Below, in pieces: positions 6,777-39,103 of a stretch of DNA of 64,000 nucleotides. The translations under genes and the position numbers were made by a program. The notes beneath the pieces were generated by a model that saw nothing but the letters and a program-made list of their open reading frames with translations, was not told where the DNA came from and did not search any database. The stretch covers positions 128,001-192,000 of the forward strand of contig JAWLHJ010000005.1 of the NCBI GenBank assembly GCA_041690395.1, read 5' to 3'. This DNA comes from Longimicrobiales bacterium (GTDB taxonomy: Bacteria; Gemmatimonadota; Gemmatimonadetes; Longimicrobiales; Gaopeijiaceae). The first letter of the stretch is position 1, and each line of letters opens with the position of its first letter.

Positions 6777-7535
6777 ATGGAACACACGACTACCGGGTGG
6801 GACGCGGCTCAGAGCGGGACGGACGTCGCTGCGCGTGACGATCTGATCTCACGGCACATGAGGCTGGTGCATCACGTCGCGCGGCAGGTGATGCGATCCA
6901 CAAGCGCGGACGTCGACCTGGACGAGCTCGTCAGCGCTGGAGCCGTTGGGCTCATGAAGGCCATTGAGAACTTCGATCCTTCGCGGGGCCTCGCGTTCAG
7001 CACGTATGCCGCGCCCAGAATTCGGGGCTCGGTGCTCGACGATCTGCGAAGGAGAGATCACGCACCCCGATCGATCCGGAAGAAGCAGCGCGACATCTCG
7101 CGCGCCACGGAGAAGCTGCAGGCGGAGCTGGGGCGCGCTCCGTCGCCGGACGAAGTGGCGAACGAGCTCGGAATCGACGTGACCAAGCTGTGGAAGTGGG
7201 AGCGAGAAACTGAGTATGCGGGGCGGGTGTCCATCGATGCCACCGTCGACTCCGGGTATGGTCGCGCCATGGCCCCGAAGGACGTGCTCGCCGGTGACGA
7301 CGAAGTGAGCGTCGAGGAGGAGATCACTCGGAAAGAAGAAGTGGCGTTCCTGCGTGACGAGATCCTCAACCTGAAGGAACAGGAGCGCCTCGTGCTCTCC
7401 CTGTACTACTTCGAGGAGCTCAAGCTCCATGAGATCGCTTCCATTCTCGGCGTCACCGAATCGCGGATCTCACAGATCAGGTCGCAGGCGGTCGCGAACC
7501 TGCGTGGGCGCCTGGGTCATCTTCGGGAGGACTGA
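6777..7535 (+). CDS. fliA: RNA polymerase sigma-28 factor FliA/WhiG
   Basis: FSTYAAPRIRGSVLDDLR and LGVTESRISQI; GGAGAG upstream of ATG 6777. Confidence 0.95.
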   Translation: MEHTTTGWDAAQSGTDVAARDDLISRHMRLVHHVARQVMRSTSADVDLDELVSAGAVGLMKAIENFDPSRGLAFSTYAAPRIRGSVLDDLRRRDHAPRSIRKKQRDISRATEKLQAELGRAPSPDEVANELGIDVTKLWKWERETEYAGRVSIDATVDSGYGRAMAPKDVLAGDDEVSVEEEITRKEEVAFLRDEILNLKEQERLVLSLYYFEELKLHEIASILGVTESRISQIRSQAVANLRGRLGHLRED

Positions 7536-7538
7536 GCC

Positions 7539-8108
7539 ATGAGCCTCCGCCCGACGGTGTTCCTGATGCGGCCCTTCGCCGAGGGTGTCGCGAATGAGCA
7601 GGCCCGTGCCCTCGCTCTCGAGTCGGTACCCGTGGCGCCCACGGAGTTACAGCCCTCTCAGTATGTGGCGGCCCAGGTGCGACGGATCCTGAGAGGAGAA
7701 GGCGACGCGTCGGTCTGGGCCCGCTTGCACGAGGCGCTGGCCGAAGTCGGGAGTGGCTCGGCTTCGTTGTCGCTCCCGTCTGCCGTTCCCACGACCGGTG
7801 CGTCGCCTGCGCCCGGCGATTGGGTCGCGTTCGCTGGGAGGTGGATGGAGTCGTCCCTGAGCTCGGCCTACGCACCCTATGCGCTCGCCCTCGCGGCCGC
7901 GTGCGTTCTCGTCCTCGCTTTCGCCTTCATCACCAGACGTCGGCAAGGCCGAATGTCGCCGCCGGAGGCTGTGGCCTCCGGGAATCTCGACCGTAGAGGC
8001 CAGGTCCGCGCCCTGGCGGCCACCGGCGTTCCCGTCGCCGATATCGCCCGCCGAATGGGCTTGTCCCGGGAAGCCGTCGTCGTCCTGACGCGGGTGCGCA
8101 CGTCGTGA
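7539..8108 (+). CDS. Hypothetical single-TM protein with C-terminal HTH-like segment
   Basis: TM ALALAAACVLVLAFAFI, then VADIARRMGLSREAV; fills the gap between fliA and flgF and overlaps flgF by 4 nt. Confidence 0.65.
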   Translation: MSLRPTVFLMRPFAEGVANEQARALALESVPVAPTELQPSQYVAAQVRRILRGEGDASVWARLHEALAEVGSGSASLSLPSAVPTTGASPAPGDWVAFAGRWMESSLSSAYAPYALALAAACVLVLAFAFITRRRQGRMSPPEAVASGNLDRRGQVRALAATGVPVADIARRMGLSREAVVVLTRVRTS

Positions 8109-14373: not shown

Positions 14374-14646
14374 ATGCTGATCCTGAGTCGCAAGCCTGGC
14401 GACGCCGTGCTGATCGACGGTGGCATTCGCATTGTCGTCCTGTCGACGGACGGAGGAGGCGTGCGCCTGGGTATCGAGGCGCCGGCGTCCGTCGGCATCG
14501 TGCGGGAAGAGATCGCTCGGGATATCGCCGAAGAGAACGTACGGGCCGGAGCAACGCCCGAGACGCGCGCATGGCTCGAGGCGTTGGGCTCGGACCCCGC
14601 TGAACCGGCGGAGGTCACGGACGCGGACTCCGCCGACGAAGTGTGA
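14374..14646 (+). CDS. csrA: Carbon storage regulator CsrA
   Basis: MLILSRKPGDAVLIDGGIRI...VRLGIEAP..V.IVREEI. Confidence 0.95.
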   Translation: MLILSRKPGDAVLIDGGIRIVVLSTDGGGVRLGIEAPASVGIVREEIARDIAEENVRAGATPETRAWLEALGSDPAEPAEVTDADSADEV

Positions 14647-14731: not shown

Positions 14732-15370
14732 TTACTTCGAGGCGCGGGACACCTCGAGGGACGGGAAGGAGACCGTCGCGCCGTCTGCCGTCACCGAACA
14801 CGAGCCCGCATCCATGGCGAAGACCGCCGACAGGGCGGCGGTCCATGGGCCCGGGGGCACGGGCGCCACGGAGGGGATGTCGATGTGGGCCGCCTTCGCG
14901 TCACCGCGGACCACCACGGGCCTGTCCAGTCGGTCCCAGTCGCCTCCCAGACGATCGATGAGGAGCGCCATGGCCCGGACGGTCCTGCCTGCTCCCACCA
15001 GGACTGCCGGCGTCCCGTCCGCGACCGAAACGCGAGGCGGACGGACATAACCCTTGTCGCGCGCCTTCGCGTGCATGCTGAGCGCCTCGGCCACGAGGTC
15101 CTGAGGTAGCCGGGCTTCCGCACCGGCCTCCGGATTCGCGGGAATGAGCTGAAGCAATCGGGCGAGTTGCTCCAGCTTCGCGGTCTCGTCCTGGAATGCC
15201 TCCGGTACGGGCTCCCCGAGCTGCATGAGCTGTGTCACCGCCATGAGCGAGCTGACGCGGCTGTTCAGATCGTGACACACGCCCCGGATGATCCTGTCGA
15301 CGAGCGCGCTCCAGCCGGCGCTTTCCAGGAGCGAGCCTGCGGTCGTGGGAGGATAGTCGTCCGTTGTCAC
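14732..15370 (-). CDS. DHp plus degenerate CA-domain protein, ChpT-like histidine phosphotransferase candidate
   Basis: H-box GVCHDLNSRVSSL; no N/G1/F/G2 boxes recognisable; GTG start 6 nt after GGAG; about 212 aa. Confidence 0.7.
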   Translation of the reverse strand: MTTDDYPPTTAGSLLESAGWSALVDRIIRGVCHDLNSRVSSLMAVTQLMQLGEPVPEAFQDETAKLEQLARLLQLIPANPEAGAEARLPQDLVAEALSMHAKARDKGYVRPPRVSVADGTPAVLVGAGRTVRAMALLIDRLGGDWDRLDRPVVVRGDAKAAHIDIPSVAPVPPGPWTAALSAVFAMDAGSCSVTADGATVSFPSLEVSRASK

Positions 15371-15377
15371 TCGTCGC

Positions 15378-15404
15378 TCCAGTTCACACGCGGGCTGTCG
15401 ATAC
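15378..15404 (+). promoter_or_regulatory. Putative sigma-28 promoter of motAB
   Basis: TCCA-N15-GTCGATAC. Confidence 0.5.
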
Positions 15405-15495: not shown

Positions 15496-16356
15496 GTGTC
15501 TGTGTTCATTGGTCTCGGGGTCGTCTTCGGGAGCATCATCGTCGGATATACGATGCACCATGGCGAGCTCGCGATTCTCATACAGGTCAGCGAGTTCATC
15601 ATCATCGGCGGCGCCGCGTTCGGTGCCGTGATCGTGGGTAATCCACCCTCGACGGTGAAAGCGATGTTCGCGGAGACGATCGGTCTCCTCAAGCCCGATC
15701 CGTACGGCAAGGCGACGTTCCGGGACCTACTCCAGGTCCTGTACGACATCTTCTACCAGGCCCGAAGGGACGGGCTCGTCGGCGTCGAAGCGCATGTGGA
15801 GAAGCCCTTCGAGAGCGAGCTCTTCAAGCAATATCCGAGCTTTCGGGACAACCACCACGCCGTGTCTTTCCTCGCCGACACCATGAAGGTGTTGCTCACC
15901 GGTGCCGTCGAGGACCATCACCTGTCGGAGATCCTCGATCTGGATCTCGAGCAGCACCACCACGAGGCGATGGTCGTGCCCACGCGGTTGCAGGCCGTCG
16001 CCGACGCCATGCCCGGCTTCGGTATCGTCGCCGCGGTGCTCGGGGTGATCATCACCATGGGTAAGATCGGTGGATCACCGGAGGTGATCGGGAAGAGCGT
16101 CGCCGCCGCGTTGGTCGGGACCTTCCTCGGCATCCTTCTGGCGTACGGTGTGGTCGGCCCCATCGCCCAGGCCGTCGAGAACCGGGTGGTGGCACAGGAG
16201 CGCTATCTCGGCTGCATTCGTACGGCCTTGCTGTCCTTCGCGCGCGGGGACCCCCCGATCACCTCGGTGGAGTTCGCCCGCCGGAACATCGAGCCGGCGG
16301 ATCGCCCCTCGTTCGAGGAGCTCGAAGAGATGACGCGTAAGCGAGGGAAGGGGTAG
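15496..16356 (+). CDS. motA: Flagellar stator MotA (E. coli-like type)
   Basis: SEFIIIGGAA, ADAMPGFGIVAAVLG, AALVGTFLGILLAYG, VEFARR; start approximate. Confidence 0.95.
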   Translation: MSVFIGLGVVFGSIIVGYTMHHGELAILIQVSEFIIIGGAAFGAVIVGNPPSTVKAMFAETIGLLKPDPYGKATFRDLLQVLYDIFYQARRDGLVGVEAHVEKPFESELFKQYPSFRDNHHAVSFLADTMKVLLTGAVEDHHLSEILDLDLEQHHHEAMVVPTRLQAVADAMPGFGIVAAVLGVIITMGKIGGSPEVIGKSVAAALVGTFLGILLAYGVVGPIAQAVENRVVAQERYLGCIRTALLSFARGDPPITSVEFARRNIEPADRPSFEELEEMTRKRGKG

Positions 16357-16359
16357 AGC

Positions 16360-17208
16360 GTGGCCGACAAGAAAATCGTCTTCGTGAAGAAGAAGATTAA
16401 GGCGAAACACGGGCACCATGGCGGATCCTGGAAGGTGGCCTACGCCGATTTCGTGACCGCGATGATGGCGTTCTTCCTCGTGATGTGGATCATGAACATG
16501 GATCAGGGCGTGCGGGACCTGGTGCAGGGCTACTTCGAGAATCCGGTGGGCTTCAAGCGCAGCTACTCGGGTGGGCGAAACATCCTGTCCCAGGGGAATT
16601 CCATCATGAACATGGAGGTACGGCGGCAGCTCATCCTGAAGCGTCGTGAAGCGGAGGAAGGCAGGTTCCGGGAAGTCGCGGCGGAGATCGAGCGGCGCCT
16701 CGTGGGAAGCGAGTCCGGCACGCCAGAGGAGCTCGGGGTCGAAGTCGTCGTCGCGGACGATGGTCTGCGTATCGAAATGATGGAACCCAACCAGGGGGCC
16801 TCGTTCTTCGATGTCGCATCATCCAATCCTACCAGAGAGCTCGAGCAGGTTCTCCGCGTCGTGGCTGCGGAGCTCGCGGACCTGGACAATGGCGTCGTGG
16901 TCGAGGGTCACACCGACGCGACACCGTTCGGCAGCGCTGGGTATTCGAACTGGGAGCTCTCGGTGGATCGGGCGAACGCGGCGCGCCGGGTGCTGCTGTC
17001 CGGTGGGCTGTCCCCGGAGCGTCTGGTCGAGGTCCGCGGCTATGCCGATCGGCGGCTCAAGTTCGTCGATTCACCTTCGGATCGCCGAAATCGTCGCGTC
17101 ACGGTGCTGATTCCGTTCGATACCCCCGGTATGGGGGATTTCGAGGGGTGGGAGTGGTCGGAGTCGGGGGACGGGGCCGAGATCGACTCGGGGAGTGCCG
17201 ACTCGTGA
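16360..17208 (+). CDS. motB: Flagellar stator MotB
   Basis: WKVAYADFVTAMMAFF; OmpA-like GHTD...NWELSVDRA...RNRRV. Confidence 0.95.
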   Translation: MADKKIVFVKKKIKAKHGHHGGSWKVAYADFVTAMMAFFLVMWIMNMDQGVRDLVQGYFENPVGFKRSYSGGRNILSQGNSIMNMEVRRQLILKRREAEEGRFREVAAEIERRLVGSESGTPEELGVEVVVADDGLRIEMMEPNQGASFFDVASSNPTRELEQVLRVVAAELADLDNGVVVEGHTDATPFGSAGYSNWELSVDRANAARRVLLSGGLSPERLVEVRGYADRRLKFVDSPSDRRNRRVTVLIPFDTPGMGDFEGWEWSESGDGAEIDSGSADS

Positions 17209-19037
17209 GCCCGGGAGGAACGCGTTTCGACTTCCGGTGGCTCGTCCGCGTGTTCGCGGATAAGCTGGCCGAGCTCTCCGGGTCGGACAGCGTATCGGCG
17301 GCCGTGCGGCGCGCCCAGGGGGCACGCCCTGACATCCTGCTGGCGCGCGGCCCCGTCTTTCAGCGGACCGAAGTCGTGGAGGAGACGTTTTCCTTCCTGA
17401 CCCACGACCTCCTACGGTCGGTAGGGCCGCTTCGCGTGCCGGGCGACCGGCTGCCCAGGAGCCTGATGACGTTGAGGGCGGCGCTCGCCCGGTCGGGAGT
17501 GCCCGACCTCGCGGCCTTTCCCATCAGGGGTGAGGGGGAGCTGGCCGGTTGTGTCATGGCGCCGTGTGAAGGTGGATCGGCCGTGTTGGAAGATTCCGGG
17601 CCGTGGGCGGCATGCGAGTCGGCGGTATGGACGGTCAGGCTGGGCGCGGCGACGGCTGCCCTCGACGCGTTGGCCGGACGACCGGCGAGGGGCGGGGTGA
17701 TCGCCGACGTCGATGGTGTCATGACCCTCGACACGAGTGGGCGCATCCTGATGGCGCGTGGACTCTGCAGGGACATTCTGACAAGAGCCGCGGCCCCGCC
17801 GCTCGGCGCTCGTATGGAGGATCTTCTCGGCGGCGAGTCGGCGTCGACCATGTTGGCCTCCGAGGAGGCCGAGGTCGTGTGGAGCGAACACCTGTTGCCG
17901 GCCTCGGCGAGCGGGGGGCTCGCCGTCGCCATGGTCCCCGATTCGAGGGGGAGCGCTCATCGGCTCGGTCACCGTGTGGTCTGCGTGCGGGATCTGCGCA
18001 CCGACCCCGGACGGCGAGGGATCGGCCTGCGCTTCGAGCTTGTCGCCGAGGTCGCCTGGGCGCTCGACGCGTTGGGTGCGGTAGACTCGCCCGGCCAAGC
18101 CCCGCTTGCCGACCTGGTGACCGAGGCCTCTCGGCTCCTGGAAGCGGCGGCCCCGTCCGTCTCGCACCCGGGCGTCACGAGCGGTGACGAGTTGAACGAC
18201 ATCGTCCGAGCGTGCTTGCATGCCGTGGACCGGGCGCTCGCCGCGGAACGGATCCGCGTGTTCAGCTTGCTGCAGCCCGAGCTTCCGCCCGCAGCTATCG
18301 ATTCGGTCTCGCTCTACAGGGCACTGCGCCGACTCATCGACCGCGCTCGGGCCTCGCTAGGGGGAAGAGGGGGGTCTCTGACGCTCAAGACGGGTAAGGT
18401 GGACGACCAGCCTTACGTTACGGTCTCGGATGACGGCGCGGGCCGGCTCGCGAACGACGGCGGAGACAACATCGGCCTGCCGCTCTTCCGGCTCGCCGAG
18501 CCGAGCTCGGAGACCGACACCATCGAGGTGCGTGCCTTTCTCGAGCGGATCGGAGCGAAGCTGCTGTTGGAGAGCCGGCCGGGTCTGTGGACCCGATCCA
18601 CCGTGCTGCTTCGGGCCGTGCCCGCTCGGACACTTCCCGAAGAGAGGCCGAGAGGGGGCACGCCGGATGCGGGGGGACCCACTGTTCTGTCCGTGCTCGT
18701 CGTGGACGACAACCCTGCGCTGAGGAGCGTGCTTCGCCGCTACCTGGAGCGTCGGGGGCACGAGGTGACCGAGGCGTCCGACGGAAACGAAGGACTGACT
18801 GCCGTGGCCCAGAAGGACTTCGATCGACTGATCGTGGATGTCCACATGCCCGGGAAGGGAGGCCCGGAGTTCTACGAGGGGTTGGGCGTGTCCGCGCCCC
18901 AGCTGCGGCCGCGTACGATCTTCATGACCGGCGGATACGTGGAGAGCGCCATCGAGCGCTTCATCGTCGAGTCCGGGCGGCCTGCCCTCTCGAAGCCCTT
19001 CGACCTCGAAGAGCTCGCCCGGGCCGTCGAGGCCTGA
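17205..19037 (+). CDS. Degenerate histidine-kinase-like protein with C-terminal receiver domain
   Basis: REC intact (VVDD, DVHMP, T, KP); VSDDGAG G1-like box; no H-box or N-box; GTGA overlap with motB. Confidence 0.75.
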   Translation: MSPGGTRFDFRWLVRVFADKLAELSGSDSVSAAVRRAQGARPDILLARGPVFQRTEVVEETFSFLTHDLLRSVGPLRVPGDRLPRSLMTLRAALARSGVPDLAAFPIRGEGELAGCVMAPCEGGSAVLEDSGPWAACESAVWTVRLGAATAALDALAGRPARGGVIADVDGVMTLDTSGRILMARGLCRDILTRAAAPPLGARMEDLLGGESASTMLASEEAEVVWSEHLLPASASGGLAVAMVPDSRGSAHRLGHRVVCVRDLRTDPGRRGIGLRFELVAEVAWALDALGAVDSPGQAPLADLVTEASRLLEAAAPSVSHPGVTSGDELNDIVRACLHAVDRALAAERIRVFSLLQPELPPAAIDSVSLYRALRRLIDRARASLGGRGGSLTLKTGKVDDQPYVTVSDDGAGRLANDGGDNIGLPLFRLAEPSSETDTIEVRAFLERIGAKLLLESRPGLWTRSTVLLRAVPARTLPEERPRGGTPDAGGPTVLSVLVVDDNPALRSVLRRYLERRGHEVTEASDGNEGLTAVAQKDFDRLIVDVHMPGKGGPEFYEGLGVSAPQLRPRTIFMTGGYVESAIERFIVESGRPALSKPFDLEELARAVEA

Positions 19038-19064: not shown

Positions 19065-20312
19065 TCAGGCCGCCGCATCCTGGTGGCTCCGCATCCGGTC
19101 CGCGGCCCAACCCAGGGCTTCGAGGTAGGTATCCGAAAGGATCTCTCCTGATCCTCCCAGCGTCTGAAGATCCCTGATCGCCCGGTCCCAGTCGGCCTCG
19201 GCGTAGGCCTCGACCGCCTTGAGGATGATGCCTCCGGGACCCGCTCGCTCGAGCAGGGCTCCCCGCACCTCGGAAGACACGTCCACCTCCTCGAGGAGCT
19301 GTCCCAGGGTCGTGTTCAGCAGCTGATCCGCCTGTGAGAAGAGGCCGACCAGGAAGAGGGCCCCGCCCGCCGGGACGTCTCTCGTTCTGGCCGTGCGAAT
19401 CTGGTCTCCGAGCACTTCGCACATCCGAGCGCGAAGGAGGGCGTCCTTGATGAGCTCCATCCGCATGCCGTCGCCATCCTCGGACGTCATCAGCAGGAGC
19501 GTCAGCCAGCGGTAGAGGGGCTCTCGACCGAGGAGACGCATCGCGTGACCGATGGAGTCGACGCCTCGCCCACCCAGGGACGCCGAGTTGACGATACGTA
19601 GCAGCTTGTACGTCAGCGCCGGATCGACCCTGAACGCCTCCTCGAGCTGGCGGTCTCCCGCGTTCGGGTCCTGCACCAGGTTCATGAGGCGGATGATCGC
19701 CACCGACTGGGCCTTGAGGTCACTCCGGGAGAGCGTCTCAGGAGCCACGTAGTGGAACCCCTGGAAGAGCTCGAATCCGAGAGATACGCAGGTCTCGTGC
19801 ATGTCCTGGTTCTCGACCTTCTCTGCCAGCATCCGGATGCCGCGTGAGCGGAGCTGTTCGGCGACCGTGGCGAGTGAAAGGCCGGCTCGCTGGACGTCGA
19901 CCTTGACGATGCTCGCGACGTCGACCATCGGCTCCAGCTCCGTGCGGTGGACGAAGTCGTCCAGGGCGATGGTGTAACCCGCCGCCGCGAGGGACCGGAG
20001 CTTGTCGACCACGGCGGGACTGGGCTCGACATCCTCCAGCACTTCGATCACCACTCGACCCGGATCCAGAAGCTCCGGAGCTCCGCCGAGCAACATGTCC
20101 GTCGAGAAGTTGATGAAGGCCTTCTGACCTTCGGTCAGTAGGTCCAGGCCCAACCCGAGCACCGCGTCGACGATGACGGTGGATGACATGGTCGACGCGG
20201 AAGCGTTGCCCGCGGTACCGACGTCGAGATTTGCACGATAGAGCAGCTCGTGACCGACGACGCTATTGTCGGCGTCGAAGATCGGCTGCCTCGCCACGAA
20301 GACGTCCCTCAC
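19065..20312 (-). CDS. EAL-HDOD c-di-GMP phosphodiesterase (YuxH/PdeH-like)
   Basis: ARQPIFD..ELLYR, INF, EVLE, LDDF, KVD, AEKVE, FQG; HDOD DPALTYKLLRIVNS. Confidence 0.9.
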   Translation of the reverse strand: MRDVFVARQPIFDADNSVVGHELLYRANLDVGTAGNASASTMSSTVIVDAVLGLGLDLLTEGQKAFINFSTDMLLGGAPELLDPGRVVIEVLEDVEPSPAVVDKLRSLAAAGYTIALDDFVHRTELEPMVDVASIVKVDVQRAGLSLATVAEQLRSRGIRMLAEKVENQDMHETCVSLGFELFQGFHYVAPETLSRSDLKAQSVAIIRLMNLVQDPNAGDRQLEEAFRVDPALTYKLLRIVNSASLGGRGVDSIGHAMRLLGREPLYRWLTLLLMTSEDGDGMRMELIKDALLRARMCEVLGDQIRTARTRDVPAGGALFLVGLFSQADQLLNTTLGQLLEEVDVSSEVRGALLERAGPGGIILKAVEAYAEADWDRAIRDLQTLGGSGEILSDTYLEALGWAADRMRSHQDAAA

Positions 20313-26691: not shown

Positions 26692-26991
26692 ATGTCGATA
26701 CATAAGATCGGTTCAGACCTCGTACGGCCTCTCGCTCCGCGAGCGGTCGGCGGGGAGGAGCGGAGCAAGGCGCGCCAGGGAGATTCCGGCGACGCGCGTT
26801 CCGCACGCTCGGACGAGGTACAGATATCCGCCGAAGGGCGGGAGCTCGCGGCGCAGGCATCTGCATCCGAGCCATCGCTCTCGCAGGCGCGGATAGACGA
26901 GATCCAGGAGCGGATCTCTCTCGGGCACTACGATGAGCCTGCGGTCGCGGAAACGGTGGCGCGACGTATGCTCGAAGGCGGGGACCTCTAG
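26692..26991 (+). CDS. flgM: Anti-sigma-28 factor FlgM
   Basis: DEVQISAEGREL...RIDEIQERI..GHY...VARRML; 99 aa. Confidence 0.85.
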   Translation: MSIHKIGSDLVRPLAPRAVGGEERSKARQGDSGDARSARSDEVQISAEGRELAAQASASEPSLSQARIDEIQERISLGHYDEPAVAETVARRMLEGGDL

Positions 26992-27041: not shown

Positions 27042-27419
27042 ATGAAGTTTCTGGTCGTCGACGACTCCGCCACCATGCGCAGGATCGTCGTGAACTCCTT
27101 GAAACGCATCGGCTACGACGAATGCGTCGAGGCCGACGACGGCTCTGCCGGGCTCGCGGCGTTCGATACCTCGGTGGATTTCGTCATCACCGACTGGAAC
27201 ATGCCGAACATGAGCGGACTGGACTTCGTCAAGGCGATTCGCGCTAGGGATGACGGGAAGGCCGTGCCCATCCTGATGGTCACAACGCGAAGCGTGAAGG
27301 AAGACATCGTTCTCGCCGCACAGGCGGGCGTGAACAACTACGTCGTCAAGCCGTTCACGCCCCAGGTGTTGAAGGAAAAGATCGACCAGGCCCTAGGGGC
27401 CGTCGCGGGGAGCGCCTGA
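27042..27419 (+). CDS. cheY: Chemotaxis response regulator CheY
   Basis: MKFLVVDDSATMRRIV, TDWNMPNMSG, AGVNNYVVKPFTP..LKEK. Confidence 0.92.
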   Translation: MKFLVVDDSATMRRIVVNSLKRIGYDECVEADDGSAGLAAFDTSVDFVITDWNMPNMSGLDFVKAIRARDDGKAVPILMVTTRSVKEDIVLAAQAGVNNYVVKPFTPQVLKEKIDQALGAVAGSA

Positions 27420-28159
27420 TGTCGGCACCCGCCGATCGGCCCGGGTTGGCGCTCCACGATTCGGAGGCCACGCTGCGTCAGGTGGAGTCCGCCCTGGACG
27501 AGTTCAGCGGGACCGACGGCCGTCTGAGCTTCGAAGAGATCGTGACGGATCCGGACGGTCCCCCGGCGGGGCTCCACGACCTGGTCAAGCTGCTCATCGG
27601 GACCTACACGGAGATCATGGCCGTCATCGAGAGCCTGCGGCAGAGTCGTGGCCTCCTCGAACAGGCGGCGATGGATCGACTGAAGAGCACCCACGAGAAG
27701 CTCGCCGAGGTATCGTCCGCCACGGAGCTGGCGGCCGCCGGCATCTTGGACGGCCTCGACCGTGCGCTCGGCCTCGTGGACGAGCTCTCGTCGGACGAGG
27801 CCGGCGGCTCGGCCTCGTCCGATGGCTCGGACCCCGGCGCACGGCGCAGCGAGACCGCAGACACGCTGCGCGACGAGCTGCATCAGATCATGAATCTGCT
27901 TCAGTTCCAGGATATCACGTCCCAGCAGCTCGGTTATGCCTCCGGGGTCCTCATGGACATCGAAGAGCGCATGATGAGGCTGGTACGCGTCTTCGACCTC
28001 CAGAAGATGGGGATGGACGAGCTTCGGGGGGTCCTGGAGGAACGAGGTCCGGTGGCGGGACCCCGGACCCAGGATCCGGAGACGTGCGATCCCGACGCGT
28101 CGACACTGGGGGCCGATGAGCGGCAGGCGCTCGCCGACGAGGTCTTCACCTCGTCGTGA
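27419..28159 (+). CDS. CheZ-like phosphatase
   Basis: ATELAA..ILD and LQFQDITSQQL (DxxxQ); C-terminal QALADEVF; TGATG coupling to cheY. Confidence 0.75.
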   Translation: MSAPADRPGLALHDSEATLRQVESALDEFSGTDGRLSFEEIVTDPDGPPAGLHDLVKLLIGTYTEIMAVIESLRQSRGLLEQAAMDRLKSTHEKLAEVSSATELAAAGILDGLDRALGLVDELSSDEAGGSASSDGSDPGARRSETADTLRDELHQIMNLLQFQDITSQQLGYASGVLMDIEERMMRLVRVFDLQKMGMDELRGVLEERGPVAGPRTQDPETCDPDASTLGADERQALADEVFTSS

Positions 28160-29684
28160 ACGGGCGGGCCGAGCCCCTCCGGGTGGTGAGGGCTCCGGAC
28201 AGGTCGTGGGCGGCGAGCAGGGCCTCCAGAGCTGTCGCCTCGTCGGCAGTCCCGAAGGCGCCGGCGTACACCCGGAAGCGCGGACCTGCGTCCGGAGTGG
28301 AGTCCCAGAGCACGTAGCCGTCGATGCCCGACGCGCTCAGCCGGTCCACATGGCCCGCCGCGTCAGCCGGGGTATCCCAGACGCCCATCTCATAGGCCAG
28401 TTGGGATCGGCGCACCAGCCAGGCGTCGGCAGCTTCCCCTGACCATCGTTCGAGATCCGCCTTGGCCGCTTCGGCTCGAATCGAGTCTCCATAGCTGCCG
28501 GCGAGCACACGGTGGAACGTGTTCCCACCGACGTCGACGGGTGTCACGACCACCAGGACGGTGTCCCCTCGAGCCATGACCCGTTCCGCGTGCCGGCGCG
28601 CGGTGCCGCGATCCCGATACGACGCCAGGGCGATGGAGAAGGTCGGCGTCCCGTCGAACGTTCCCCGCGCGTCGGGCTCGATGGGGCGCGCGTCGGCGGC
28701 GTCCACGGCCTCGGTAGGTTCGACCATGCTGTCCCGTGCAGGTGCGGTGGCATCCGGGACGTGGGGTAGACCCGAGCCGTCTGCGTCCCCGGAGGGACCG
28801 CTCCACCACCCCGTCCAGGCCAGGACACCCACCACCACGGCTGCGAGGGCGGCGGCATGCACCAGCGACCGCCCGAAGTCTTGGGAGCCTGAGACGCGGA
28901 GGCGCTTCCACCAGGGCTTCGGCGGCGTCCCGGTCCATCCGGCGCCGTCCGGACGATCCGAGTCGCCGAAAGCCGCGCTGCCCTCGGTGGACACGGCACC
29001 CCACGTCTCGCGCGGGGGCGACGGCCGGGCGAACGGATCCATCGCCAGCGGGTCCAGCAGGTCTCCCTCGTGTGTGTGGGTGACAGCGTCGTCGGAGGAC
29101 CCGGGCCCGGCTTCGGGCGGTGCCACGATCGCGCGTAACTTGTCCGCAGGAACGACGTCGCGAGGAAGCGTGTCTTCCGGGGACGCGATGCCAATGACGT
29201 CGTCGGCGCGGGTCGCTACGAGCGACGCCCATGCAGCGTCGGCTGGCGTGAACACGACGAGCGTGACCCCAGCCTGAACGAACGTTTCGCAGAGCCGATG
29301 CCAGCGCTCCGACTTCAAGAGGAGGCTGGGGTCGCTCAGCGCGCGTCCCGGCGGGATGAGGGAGAAGCGCTCCCCGCCGACATCCTGAACAGCCTCCTGG
29401 ACCGTGGACGCACCCTCGAGGGTTTCGGCCAGCCCTGGCCCTTCGTGGGTGCCCAGCCAGAGACCCAAGCCCGGAGCCCGGAAAGAGGCATCGACGAGCA
29501 CCACACTCGTGCGGGTGCCACTCCAGGCGCGGGCCAAGGCGGTGGCAATGCTCGTGCCCCACCCCTCGCTCCACCCGCGCGCCGAGACGGACAACATCAC
29601 GATCCTGCCGGGACCCCCATCCGGACCTGCCAGTCGCGGAGGGTCCGAAGGGTCGAAAGGTCCCGTGCCGTCGCGGGGGATCAT
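28146..29684 (-). CDS. Degenerate P-loop domain, TM and tandem SPOR-like domains
   Basis: VVLVDASFRAPGL resembles BY-kinase/MinD; TM; HRVLAGSY and FRVYAGAF SPOR-like motifs. Confidence 0.75.
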   Translation of the reverse strand: MIPRDGTGPFDPSDPPRLAGPDGGPGRIVMLSVSARGWSEGWGTSIATALARAWSGTRTSVVLVDASFRAPGLGLWLGTHEGPGLAETLEGASTVQEAVQDVGGERFSLIPPGRALSDPSLLLKSERWHRLCETFVQAGVTLVVFTPADAAWASLVATRADDVIGIASPEDTLPRDVVPADKLRAIVAPPEAGPGSSDDAVTHTHEGDLLDPLAMDPFARPSPPRETWGAVSTEGSAAFGDSDRPDGAGWTGTPPKPWWKRLRVSGSQDFGRSLVHAAALAAVVVGVLAWTGWWSGPSGDADGSGLPHVPDATAPARDSMVEPTEAVDAADARPIEPDARGTFDGTPTFSIALASYRDRGTARRHAERVMARGDTVLVVVTPVDVGGNTFHRVLAGSYGDSIRAEAAKADLERWSGEAADAWLVRRSQLAYEMGVWDTPADAAGHVDRLSASGIDGYVLWDSTPDAGPRFRVYAGAFGTADEATALEALLAAHDLSGALTTRRGSARPFTTR

Positions 29685-37389: not shown

Positions 37390-38166
37390 ATGGACAAAGC
37401 CTCGATCTTCGGAGTGGTCACGGGCACGGCCCTCGTCCTGGCCGCGATTCTCCTCGGGGGCAGTCTCGGCACGTTCTTCAACGTCCAAGGCCTCCTCATC
37501 GTCGCTGGCGGCACCTTCGCGGCGGTCTGCATCGCGTTTCCCACCGACGAGCTCAAGCTCATCCTTCCCGTGACCCGTCGGGTCTTCAACCATCCCGGGG
37601 ACGAGATGGCGGCGCTCATGAAGTTCCTGGTGCGGGCGGCCCAGATCTTCAAGCGGGATGGCCCACTCGCCCTCGAGGGCATCGCCGCCGAGGCACCGTC
37701 CAAGCCCCTGGCCAAGGGACTGCAGCTCATCGCCGACGGTACGGATGCGGCCACGATCCACGAGATTCTCGGCACTGAGCGAAAATACATGGAGGAGCAT
37801 CACCGGGTAGGCCAGAAGATCTTCAACGAAATGGGCAAGTACGCCCCTGCGTTCGGCATGGTCGGGACGCTGATCGGGCTCGTCCAGATGCTGGCCAACA
37901 TGAGTGACCCGGAGAGCCTCGGCCCGGCCATGGCCGTGGCTCTGCTCACCACGTTCTACGGCGCCGTGCTGGCCAATCTCATTTTCATTCCGATGGTGAC
38001 CAAGCTGGACAGGCGCATTCACATCGAGGTCACGCAGATCCAACTCGCCATCGTCGGCTTGATCTCGCTCCATCGGGGGGACACCACCCAGATCCTGCGG
38101 GAGAAGCTCATGGCGTTCGTGCACGCGCAGGACGAGGATCTGGAGACAACCGGGGCGGAGGGCTGA
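37390..38166 (+). CDS. motA: Second stator A subunit (MotA/PomA/MotP type)
   Basis: GLQLIADG, APAFGMVGTLIGLVQML, GPAMAVALLTTFYG. Confidence 0.92.
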   Translation: MDKASIFGVVTGTALVLAAILLGGSLGTFFNVQGLLIVAGGTFAAVCIAFPTDELKLILPVTRRVFNHPGDEMAALMKFLVRAAQIFKRDGPLALEGIAAEAPSKPLAKGLQLIADGTDAATIHEILGTERKYMEEHHRVGQKIFNEMGKYAPAFGMVGTLIGLVQMLANMSDPESLGPAMAVALLTTFYGAVLANLIFIPMVTKLDRRIHIEVTQIQLAIVGLISLHRGDTTQILREKLMAFVHAQDEDLETTGAEG

Positions 38167-38170
38167 CACC

Positions 38171-39103
38171 ATGGCTGCTCTGGGACCCGACGTGAACGAA
38201 GAGACATCCGAAGCGCCCGTGGAGGAGGGAGCGCCGCTCTGGACCGTGACGTTCGGGGACATGATGAGCTTGCTGTTGACCTTCTTCATCTTGCTGTTCT
38301 CCATGTCCGAGCTCCGCATGGAGCGGTTCCTGCTCGCGAGTCAGTCTCTTAGCGCCGCGTTGGGAGGAACCGCGCCGGAGCCTGTGCCGGAGCCGATCAG
38401 CCTCGTACCGGACTCCCTCGGCGAACCCTTTCCGGAGGGGCCCCCGGGCTCGGCGGGCGAAGCCCCCGATGCCAGGGGGGAGGCCGAGCCCGGGCCGGAG
38501 TCCGAACTCGCCGGGGATACGCCGTCCGTGGAGTCGGTCGTGGAGCGCCTCACCGAGGAGTATCTGAACGACCTTCTGAGGCGGCTCCAGGACTTCGTGA
38601 CGCGAAACGACCTGGGTGAGGTCCTCAGTGTCGACAAAGGGCCGTCGGGTGTGCGTGTCCGGGTTTCGGCGGCGGCGCTGTTCGAGCCGGGAAGCGCTGC
38701 CGTGAGCGAGGAAAGTCGCTGGCTCCTGGACTTCTTTGCCGACCTCGCCAGCGAAGTACGTCTGCCGGTCATCGTTTCGGGGCACGCGGACAACCAGCCC
38801 ATCCAGAATGCGTGGTTTCCCTCCAACTGGGAGCTGTCCGCGGCCCGTGCGGCGGGAGTCGCGCGGGAGCTCGTGGCCCGAGGGCACGACCCGCTGCTCC
38901 TGAGGGTGGAGTCGTTTGGTGAGCACCGGCCGGTGGCATCGAATGACTCCATGGGTGGACGCGCCCTGAACCGCCGCATAGAGTTTCTCTACGACCGCGT
39001 GGATATCATGAGGACGATCGAGGGGTGGCGTCGGAGTCTGGCCGGGCCGGACGCCACCGCGGCGGAACCCGAGTCACGACGACAGGAGAACGGGCGGAAC
39101 TAG
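38171..39103 (+). CDS. motB: Second stator B subunit (PomB/MotS type)
   Basis: WTVTFGDMMSLLLTFFILLFSMS; GHADN..SNWELSAARA..NRRIE. Confidence 0.92.
   Translation: MAALGPDVNEETSEAPVEEGAPLWTVTFGDMMSLLLTFFILLFSMSELRMERFLLASQSLSAALGGTAPEPVPEPISLVPDSLGEPFPEGPPGSAGEAPDARGEAEPGPESELAGDTPSVESVVERLTEEYLNDLLRRLQDFVTRNDLGEVLSVDKGPSGVRVRVSAAALFEPGSAAVSEESRWLLDFFADLASEVRLPVIVSGHADNQPIQNAWFPSNWELSAARAAGVARELVARGHDPLLLRVESFGEHRPVASNDSMGGRALNRRIEFLYDRVDIMRTIEGWRRSLAGPDATAAEPESRRQENGRN

Follow-up and report, generated by a model that had tools for sequence, protein, structure and literature searches.

A kinase-dead histidine kinase relative in the flagellar gene cluster of Gemmatimonadota and its association with a sigma-54 activator

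What could a protein with the architecture and the reactive histidine of a histidine kinase, and without the motifs that bind ATP, contribute to a flagellar gene cluster? The question is raised by a 212-residue protein, here labelled X, that is encoded in a 64,000-nucleotide stretch of bacterial DNA (the window). A sequence-only reading of this DNA had proposed that the protein is a ChpT-like histidine phosphotransferase, part of a phosphorelay acting on motility in a lineage that does not look alphaproteobacterial. The lineage was judged correctly, in that the Atlas clusters closest to X are unnamed and come mostly from Gemmatimonadota. The reading frame is also as had been described: it is open throughout, its translation (14732-15370, minus strand) contains IIRGVCHDLNSRVSSL, and its H-box histidine, His33, is encoded at 15272-15274. 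An identical 212-aa protein was found to be already recorded when the sequence was looked up. The features on which the following analysis depends are these:

14732..15370, minus strand: X, a kinase-dead DHp and CA protein (translation, identical recorded protein, predicted fold, profile alignment)
15272..15274, minus strand: codon of His33, which reads CAC on this strand; invariant in the family (153/153)
15146..15313, minus strand: predicted DHp helical hairpin, residues 20-75, from the model; Trp20, Gly30, His33, Arg38 and Glu62 are conserved
14759..15118, minus strand: CA-like (GHKL) domain spanning residues 85-204, in which the N, G1, F and G2 boxes are all missing (model, structure search, profile alignment)
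14849..14872, minus strand: eight-residue loop (167-174) in place of the ATP lid (model and profile alignment)
15377..15380, minus strand: GGAG, resembling a ribosome-binding site, 6 nt upstream of the GTG start of X (sequence)
14374..14646, plus strand: csrA, convergent with X, the usual synteny in flagellated relatives
15496..16356, plus strand: motA, divergent from X here and in 18 of 29 related loci, with motB alongside
6777..7535, plus strand: fliA (sigma-28), which remains by X and the sigma-54 activator where flagellar genes have been lost
26692..26991, plus strand: flgM, of which weak remnants lie by the activator in some collapsed modules

The position of X, divergent from motAB and convergent with csrA, agrees with the earlier description, and the link to flagellar genes that had been drawn from it is supported by synteny in related genomes. 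Beyond the 18 related loci in which X diverges from motA, it is convergent on fliA in nine, lies by flgN in one and shows none of these arrangements in the last. Scans of X with Pfam and NCBIfam returned nothing useful, and annotation overlooks the family because neither collection holds a model for it.

Several other features were recorded in and around the window. A second pseudo-kinase (17205-19037, plus strand) combines a GAF/PAS-like region, no H-box, a degenerate CA domain and a C-terminal receiver whose FMTGGY segment resembles the FATGUY motif of relay receivers; it occupies the same place only in G116, and in G207 this place is taken by an intact hybrid kinase. A 189-aa reading frame (7539-8108, plus strand), situated between fliA and the next rod-type gene, has a hydrophobic segment and, at its C-terminal end, a weak helix-turn-helix (E ~0.01). 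A CheZ-like protein follows cheY (27419-28159, plus strand; E 7.5e-7, just under cut-off), a SPOR-domain protein is encoded at 28146-29684 on the minus strand, and an apparent second stator gene pair, recognized from its translations, lies apart from motAB at 37390-39103 (plus strand). Elsewhere in the phylum sample, all 13 genomes of family f10 carry a distant FlgI-like match (33-38% identity) that differs from the main type of flagellar FlgI.

Predicted fold and resemblance to ChpT

An AlphaFold2 model of X built on a 31-row alignment has a mean pLDDT of 93. It places helices at residues 20-50 and 57-75 ahead of an alpha/beta domain, which together correspond to a DHp hairpin and a kinase-type CA fold, and no membrane segment is apparent. 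The pseudo-kinase architecture proposed from the sequence is therefore upheld by the model, and also by structural searches. Histidine kinases head the Foldseek list, and a wide structural search matched kinase CA domains, the best being that of ThkA (Z 12.0, rmsd 3.0 Å over 127 residues). Between the strand whose end normally carries G1 and the helix after it, the model has only eight residues (167-174). Profile alignment to intact kinases accordingly gives a substituted N-box Asn and a deleted G1-F-G2 lid, which confirms the earlier remark that all four boxes are missing, and among 153 X-family sequences even loose motif matches are rare (G1 in five, G2 in two, F in none and N in six). Because the ATP boxes are missing, X should not autophosphorylate. 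Judged by its motifs and predicted fold, X is a histidine kinase remnant that has no ATP-binding motifs and retains the reactive histidine.

ChpT of alphaproteobacteria (PF10090; PDB 4FMT and 4FPP) is likewise a stand-alone DHp and CA-like protein of ~210 aa, with a conserved H-box histidine and without a working ATP lid. In its strongest form, the sequence-only reading would make X an orthologue of ChpT proper, acting in a CckA-ChpT-CtrA/CpdR relay. Similar size and fold, the CHD motif in the copy of X from the window and the presence of ChpT chains in the Foldseek list (E 1.3e-4 at rank 37 and 1.8e-4 at rank 48) speak for such orthology, which we nevertheless regard as extremely improbable. 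Ordinary kinases outrank ChpT in that list, and the TM value of 0.37 at rank 37 lies within the range of the kinases, in a comparison limited by the domain orientation of a monomer model. ChpT was not among the 50 matches listed in the wide VIA structural search, which does not indicate that the folds differ. PF10090 leaves X unmatched at E<=1; X is not among its 15 matches in the genome at E<=0.1, and only one of 31 X-family members is matched (E 0.025). Conversely, when the PDB is searched with the X-family profile, ZraS (E 1.3e-12) and kinases of the FixL type are matched and no chain of ChpT appears up to E=10, and the best models for family members are AtoS and ZraS.

Individual residues and partners point the same way. 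The CHD likeness to ChpT is not a family feature (9/153), the H+1 residue is mostly Ala, and H+5 is Arg in 148 of 153 sequences and Pro in none, whereas ChpT has Pro38 at H+5 (available text of PMC3433190). A search of the genome (98% complete) for CtrA gave six Trans_reg_C matches. Five of these are OmpR-type regulators that have a receiver; they reach 107-158 bits on the CtrA model, whose cut-off is 350, so that none qualifies as CtrA; the conserved companion of X is instead a sigma-54 activator. X is thus not a member of ChpT, and its likeness to ChpT is convergent. Spo0B-type Pfam families also gave no match to 31 X-family members at E<=0.1.

Conservation and descent of the X family

As a single query, X finds relatives in 42 of 301 genomes of the phylum, and the X profile yields 46 matches of at least 99 bits in 45 phylum-sample genomes. 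Lower matches (<=82 bits) are mostly long kinases, plus a few divergent syntenic members. A library clustered at 50% contains 338 X-family clusters at E<=1e-30; lengths are 181-371 aa in the best 150 of the 338, with a median of 230 in the 153-sequence set. X therefore founds an unnamed family of Gemmatimonadota that is real, conserved and unannotated. His33, whose conservation in homologues was a natural check on the original proposal, is kept in every sequence of the set. Its surroundings are less uniform: H+4 is Asn in 139 of the 153, an acid at H+1 is present in 18 and absent in 135, and 132 combine the absence of the H+1 acid with a retained Asn/Thr at H+4. The X of the window, with Asp at H+1 and Ser at H+4, belongs to a minority type (11/153), and relatives within its order vary at both positions.

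Rough dN/dS values for X lie at 0.13-0.16 for two pairs with a flagellum, at 0.35-0.40 for two pairs without one and at 0.60 for a single mixed pair; these are crude figures at high divergence, from a set that excludes one mis-framed activator pair (g63). X is under purifying selection, perhaps relaxed. Two of the genomes used, G157 and G391, are unpublished. The former contributes a single row to alignment A2 and a single count to each of the 45-genome, 29-locus and 251-genome tallies, and the latter a single count to the 251-genome tally; no conclusion rests on either.

An intact kinase occupies the same gene slot in a sister family (f4). Downstream of flgI, a short kinase gene follows csrA or flgK in 13 of 16 f4 loci, and the other three comprise a locus without a kinase, a contig end and a genome with its kinase elsewhere; nine more flagellated f4 genomes lie outside this count. 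Of 20 proteins of this intact type, every one has an N-box and a G2 box, 19 have the histidine and 15 the H+1 acid. The intact kinase is sensor-less and has almost no N-terminal region. The exception for the histidine, at L058:3564-4355 (G095), keeps its ATP boxes and is a mirror image of X. The intact kinase directly adjoins the activator in G217, G243 and G298, and several genes of this type are convergent on the activator or follow fliA, as does one in family f5 (G339).

The X profile and the intact-type profile align end to end (99.07%, E 1.4e-18), and ZraS is the best PDB match of both (E 1.3e-12 and 1.2e-40, respectively). In a 61-row tree, X forms one clade (100/99) outside the clade of CckA-like hybrid kinases (100/96), and a group made up of X, the intact type and one further kinase is set apart, with moderate support (89/85), from 33 other kinases of the genome. 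An AU test does not reject X and the intact type as one clade (p=0.40), which permits this grouping and does not establish it. The tree left out 14 X and six intact-type rows and then 13 further rows (long branches and near-copies), and it has no ChpT or Spo0B rows. Taken as a reading of sequence and gene position, descent of X from an intact flagellar kinase is likely. The concern that homologues of X might be intact kinases and X a decayed copy is thus half justified: positional counterparts in the sister family are intact, but X itself, with 338 clusters and dN/dS below 1, is not decayed.

ZraS and AtoS, the top matches of X, are sensor kinases of the NtrB class, whose usual partners are sigma-54 activators; unlike X, both are sensors located in the membrane, and their ATP sites are intact. 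Pairs of a cytoplasmic NtrB-type kinase and a REC-sigma54 activator are known from Campylobacter and Helicobacter (FlgS/FlgR), Pseudomonas (FleS/FleR) and Vibrio (FlrB/FlrC), in a flagellar setting with FlhF/FlhG and FliA/FlgM that X shares (as presented in the available parts of PMC3930126 and PMC7064773). X resembles these kinases as a cytoplasmic HisKA-type protein tied to a flagellar sigma-54 activator. However, they have an intact HATPase domain and an N-terminal sensory region, whereas X has neither, its histidine being at residue 33 with no domain ahead of the DHp. Because an intact sensor-less kinase fills the slot of X in the sister family, X and its activator look like a pair of the FlgS/FlgR type whose kinase has died.

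The sigma-54 activator as companion of X

The sequence-only reading had named the REC proteins at 17205 and 20263 among the receivers to which phosphotransfer could be checked. Neither neighbour is conserved in place, and both were set aside; the conserved companion lies outside the window. It is a REC-sigma54-AAA-HTH protein encoded at C5:112071-113453 of the same genome (G000), ~14.5 kb before the window, and in the window genome its Asp52, Thr80, Lys102 and GAFTGA motif are all intact. It scores 324 bits with an FlgR model and 390 with an FlbD model, both under the cut-off. The activator gene heads the flagellar cluster, the genes that follow it being named tentatively from their position. 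A sigma-54-type -24/-12 site at C5:113741 (L075:3741) lies 63 bp before the first of these genes and was the single strict site in 55 kb; as the scan has a background of 1.2 per 55 kb and similar sites occur in only seven of 37 loci, we place little weight on it.

Each of the 45 phylum-sample genomes in which X is matched strongly has an activator orthologue, whereas only 34 of them have FlgI. Across 251 genomes of one family, X and the activator occur together in 129, X alone in seven, the activator alone in 28 and neither in 87, so that 129 of 136 X-bearing genomes have the activator; the seven with X only are all fragmented (240-950 contigs). No p-value is given for this co-occurrence, since the genomes are related and not independent. 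Activator-only genomes may hide divergent X copies, as G294 does, and G010 has two copies of each gene. The pairing is not strict, as judged by G127 and G165, which have the intact kinase and no activator orthologue, and by the 28 genomes with an activator but no detected X.

Loss of the flagellum provides a more demanding comparison. Eleven of the 45 genomes with X have no FlgI match, and we read the collapsed loci of ten of these together with the second copy in G010. The activator, fliA and X lie within ~6 kb in all 11, some with weak flgM remnants. These mini-modules without flagellar structural genes are L034-L044 (G214, G289, G251, G088, G077, G111, G131, G276, G219, G255 and G010). The mini-module may have spread as a duplicate, because G010 has it besides a full cluster. 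Neither FlhA nor flagellin was matched in five flagellum-less X genomes (95-99% complete), and a CheY orthologue is absent from four of the five. Because X is kept in such genomes, an input from the MS ring, rotor and export apparatus would not be the only one. This persistence distinguishes X and its activator from pairs of the FlgS/FlgR type, as does the distance of ~30 kb between their genes in flagellated genomes. No conserved donor kinase was found in the collapsed loci, and no kinase or phosphate donor for the activator was identified.

A predicted complex of an X dimer with the activator receiver scores 0.48, compared with 0.18 for the best control, and is a weak pass: the mark is reached by 116 of 157 solved and two of 215 mismatched pairs, but those that reach it with a score of 0.60 or less are only 18 solved pairs and both mismatches. 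The runs agree in at least 86% of contacts, with a partner pLDDT of 79. Because kinase-receiver complexes have already been solved, the score may reflect complexes known to the predictor.

The phospho-acceptor of the activator was also followed. At least one activator copy keeps Asp52 in all 37 genomes read that have some form of X. Among flagellated genomes in which X was not found, Asp52 was lost in three of the first four, but 19 of 19 further activator-only loci kept it, including that of G339 with its intact kinase type. Asp52 is retained in 21 of 24 X-less genomes and lost in three, replaced by Val in two closely similar activators (G021 and G154) and by Glu in G237. X is therefore not an obligatory donor everywhere, although the losses, once to Glu, suit an activator that has lost its donor.

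Activators that keep GAFTGA and have no phospho-acceptor Asp were recorded at L112 (G237, Glu), L108 (G021, Val), L110 (G154, Val) and L106 (G140, Ser); they are candidates for phosphorylation-independent activators. In five genomes of genus g158 (L132, L138, L141, L145 and L147), the activator, with its Asp intact, is adjacent to fliA and X was not detected. A weakly kinase-like and a REC-like reading frame lie near these loci and represent a possible replacement input.

Possible action of X and its meaning for flagellar control

We consider it likely that X is a kinase-dead partner that controls phosphorylation of the activator, in one direction or the other. This view builds on the predicted fold, the lost motifs, the invariant histidine and the co-occurrence and co-location with the activator, from which we infer the rest of the scheme. 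The leading version, in which X is specifically a His-dependent phosphatase for the activator, has in our estimate somewhat less than an even chance of being correct. Such a protein would have descended from the intact sensor-less kinase of the sister-family slot, would dimerize through its DHp hairpin and would likely dock on the receiver domain of the activator. There, His33 and the H+4 residue could activate water for hydrolysis of the phosphate on Asp52. Loss of this phosphate, which another kinase or acetyl phosphate might supply, would damp sigma-54-dependent flagellar transcription.

HisKA proteins require an acid at H+1 for kinase and Asn/Thr at H+4 for phosphatase activity (PMC3510030 and PMC8292422, in the parts available). 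The CrdS variant E372A, which is kinase-minus and phosphatase-plus, matches the majority pattern of the X family, and loss of the histidine affects CrdS phosphatase only mildly (both in the same part of PMC3510030). However, loss of the histidine is described as abolishing PleC phosphatase, and CckN needs its histidine (H47A; available text of bioRxiv 10.1101/2020.04.29.069633). The invariance of His33 is therefore compatible with either a phosphatase or a relay, and the motif of the family suits a phosphatase no less well than a relay. CckN, a dedicated HisKA phosphatase of Caulobacter, is in that account His-dependent in vivo and without autokinase activity, properties that X would share if its sequence is a guide. 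Unlike X, it keeps all catalytic CA residues, and it targets DivK and PleD and not a sigma-54 activator. Several observations weigh against a phosphatase. Conservation is higher at the histidine (153 sequences) than for the H+4 Asn (139), which is what a relay would require, the X of the window has the minority residues at H+1 and H+4, and some HisKA phosphatases, such as DrBphP, depend on ATP (PMC8292422, in part), which X is not predicted to bind.

Alternatively, X might be a histidine phosphotransferase like ChpT but of independent origin, passing phosphate from a hybrid-kinase receiver or a single-domain regulator to the activator and so turning flagellar genes on. We regard this as possible but doubtful. 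It would account for the unbroken conservation of the histidine, for the Asp kept at H+1 in the X of the window and for the loss of Asp52 in three genomes without X. ChpT has the same architecture and a lid that was also remodelled (available text of PMC3433190), and the genome holds 20 kinases with a CckA-type H-box pattern and only three Hpt domains. Degenerate kinases have become relays several times, as Spo0B, ChpT and PhyT, and PhyT was initially mistaken for a phosphatase (PMC5898713, in part). According to the same source, PhyT/PhyP and Spo0B are, like X, kinase-derived with a degenerate ATPase domain and exert His-dependent control of a response regulator. Unlike X, PhyT is membrane-anchored, has an HRxxN box and serves the general stress response, and Spo0B acts in sporulation. 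Against a relay stand the H+1 acid missing from most relatives, the retention of Asp52 in most X-less genomes and the collapsed loci, which have no conserved donor. CheY, considered as a donor to X, was set aside because it is missing from four of the five flagellum-less genomes.

It is quite improbable, in our view, that X controls the activator through binding alone, as an anti-activator or a sensor of phosphorylation state, with the histidine at the interface. The lost ATP site, the variable catalytic flanking residues in the order of X and the missing histidine of the intact-type counterpart in G095 would suit such a role, for which FliX-FlbD and DivL-DivK are models. DivL, which acts through binding only, has replaced its histidine, whereas all 153 kinase-dead members of the X family keep theirs, and nearly all activator copies retain a full phosphorylation pocket. 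FlbD itself is controlled through FliX binding and not by a kinase (available text of PMC3930126). Equally hard to credit is an action of X on another receiver, namely CheY (27042), the REC protein at 20263 or a sister-family REC-HD protein, with the association of X with the activator and fliA reflecting shared cluster history. The sister-family gene does lie after motAB and after a gene for a REC-HD or single REC protein, on one strand with them, G127 and G165 have no activator, and a REC resembling that at 20263 is directly upstream of X in G289. However, each of these receivers is missing from at least some of the 11 collapsed loci, whereas the activator persists in every one, and four of five flagellum-less genomes have no CheY.

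Decay of the ATP domain of a kinase is the probable origin of dimeric phosphotransferases, of which Spo0B, ChpT and PhyT are examples. We know of no case in which an intact and a dead kinase form share a gene slot and a partner. Here both forms, and intermediates between them, occur within one phylum, so that natural sequences allow a direct assay of how a kinase becomes a phosphatase or a relay. A broader proposal, which we consider rather unlikely as a whole, is that Gemmatimonadota keep a living series in which an intact sensor-less flagellar kinase of the NtrB class gave rise to an independent phosphotransferase in the style of ChpT or Spo0B. Such a protein would funnel many hybrid kinases into one activator, and the module of X, activator and FliA would be kept for a non-flagellar programme after loss of the flagellum.

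A full-text literature search found no paper on the X family or on flagellar regulation in Gemmatimonadota within a coverage that excludes most subscription journals and supplements, which is not proof of novelty. The main text of a marine Gemmatimonadota genomics paper does not mention flagella, motility or two-component systems (PMC11316326). X and the activator would represent a first testable regulatory scheme for the flagellar genes of this phylum, in which a sigma-54/sigma-28 control module outlives the flagellum.
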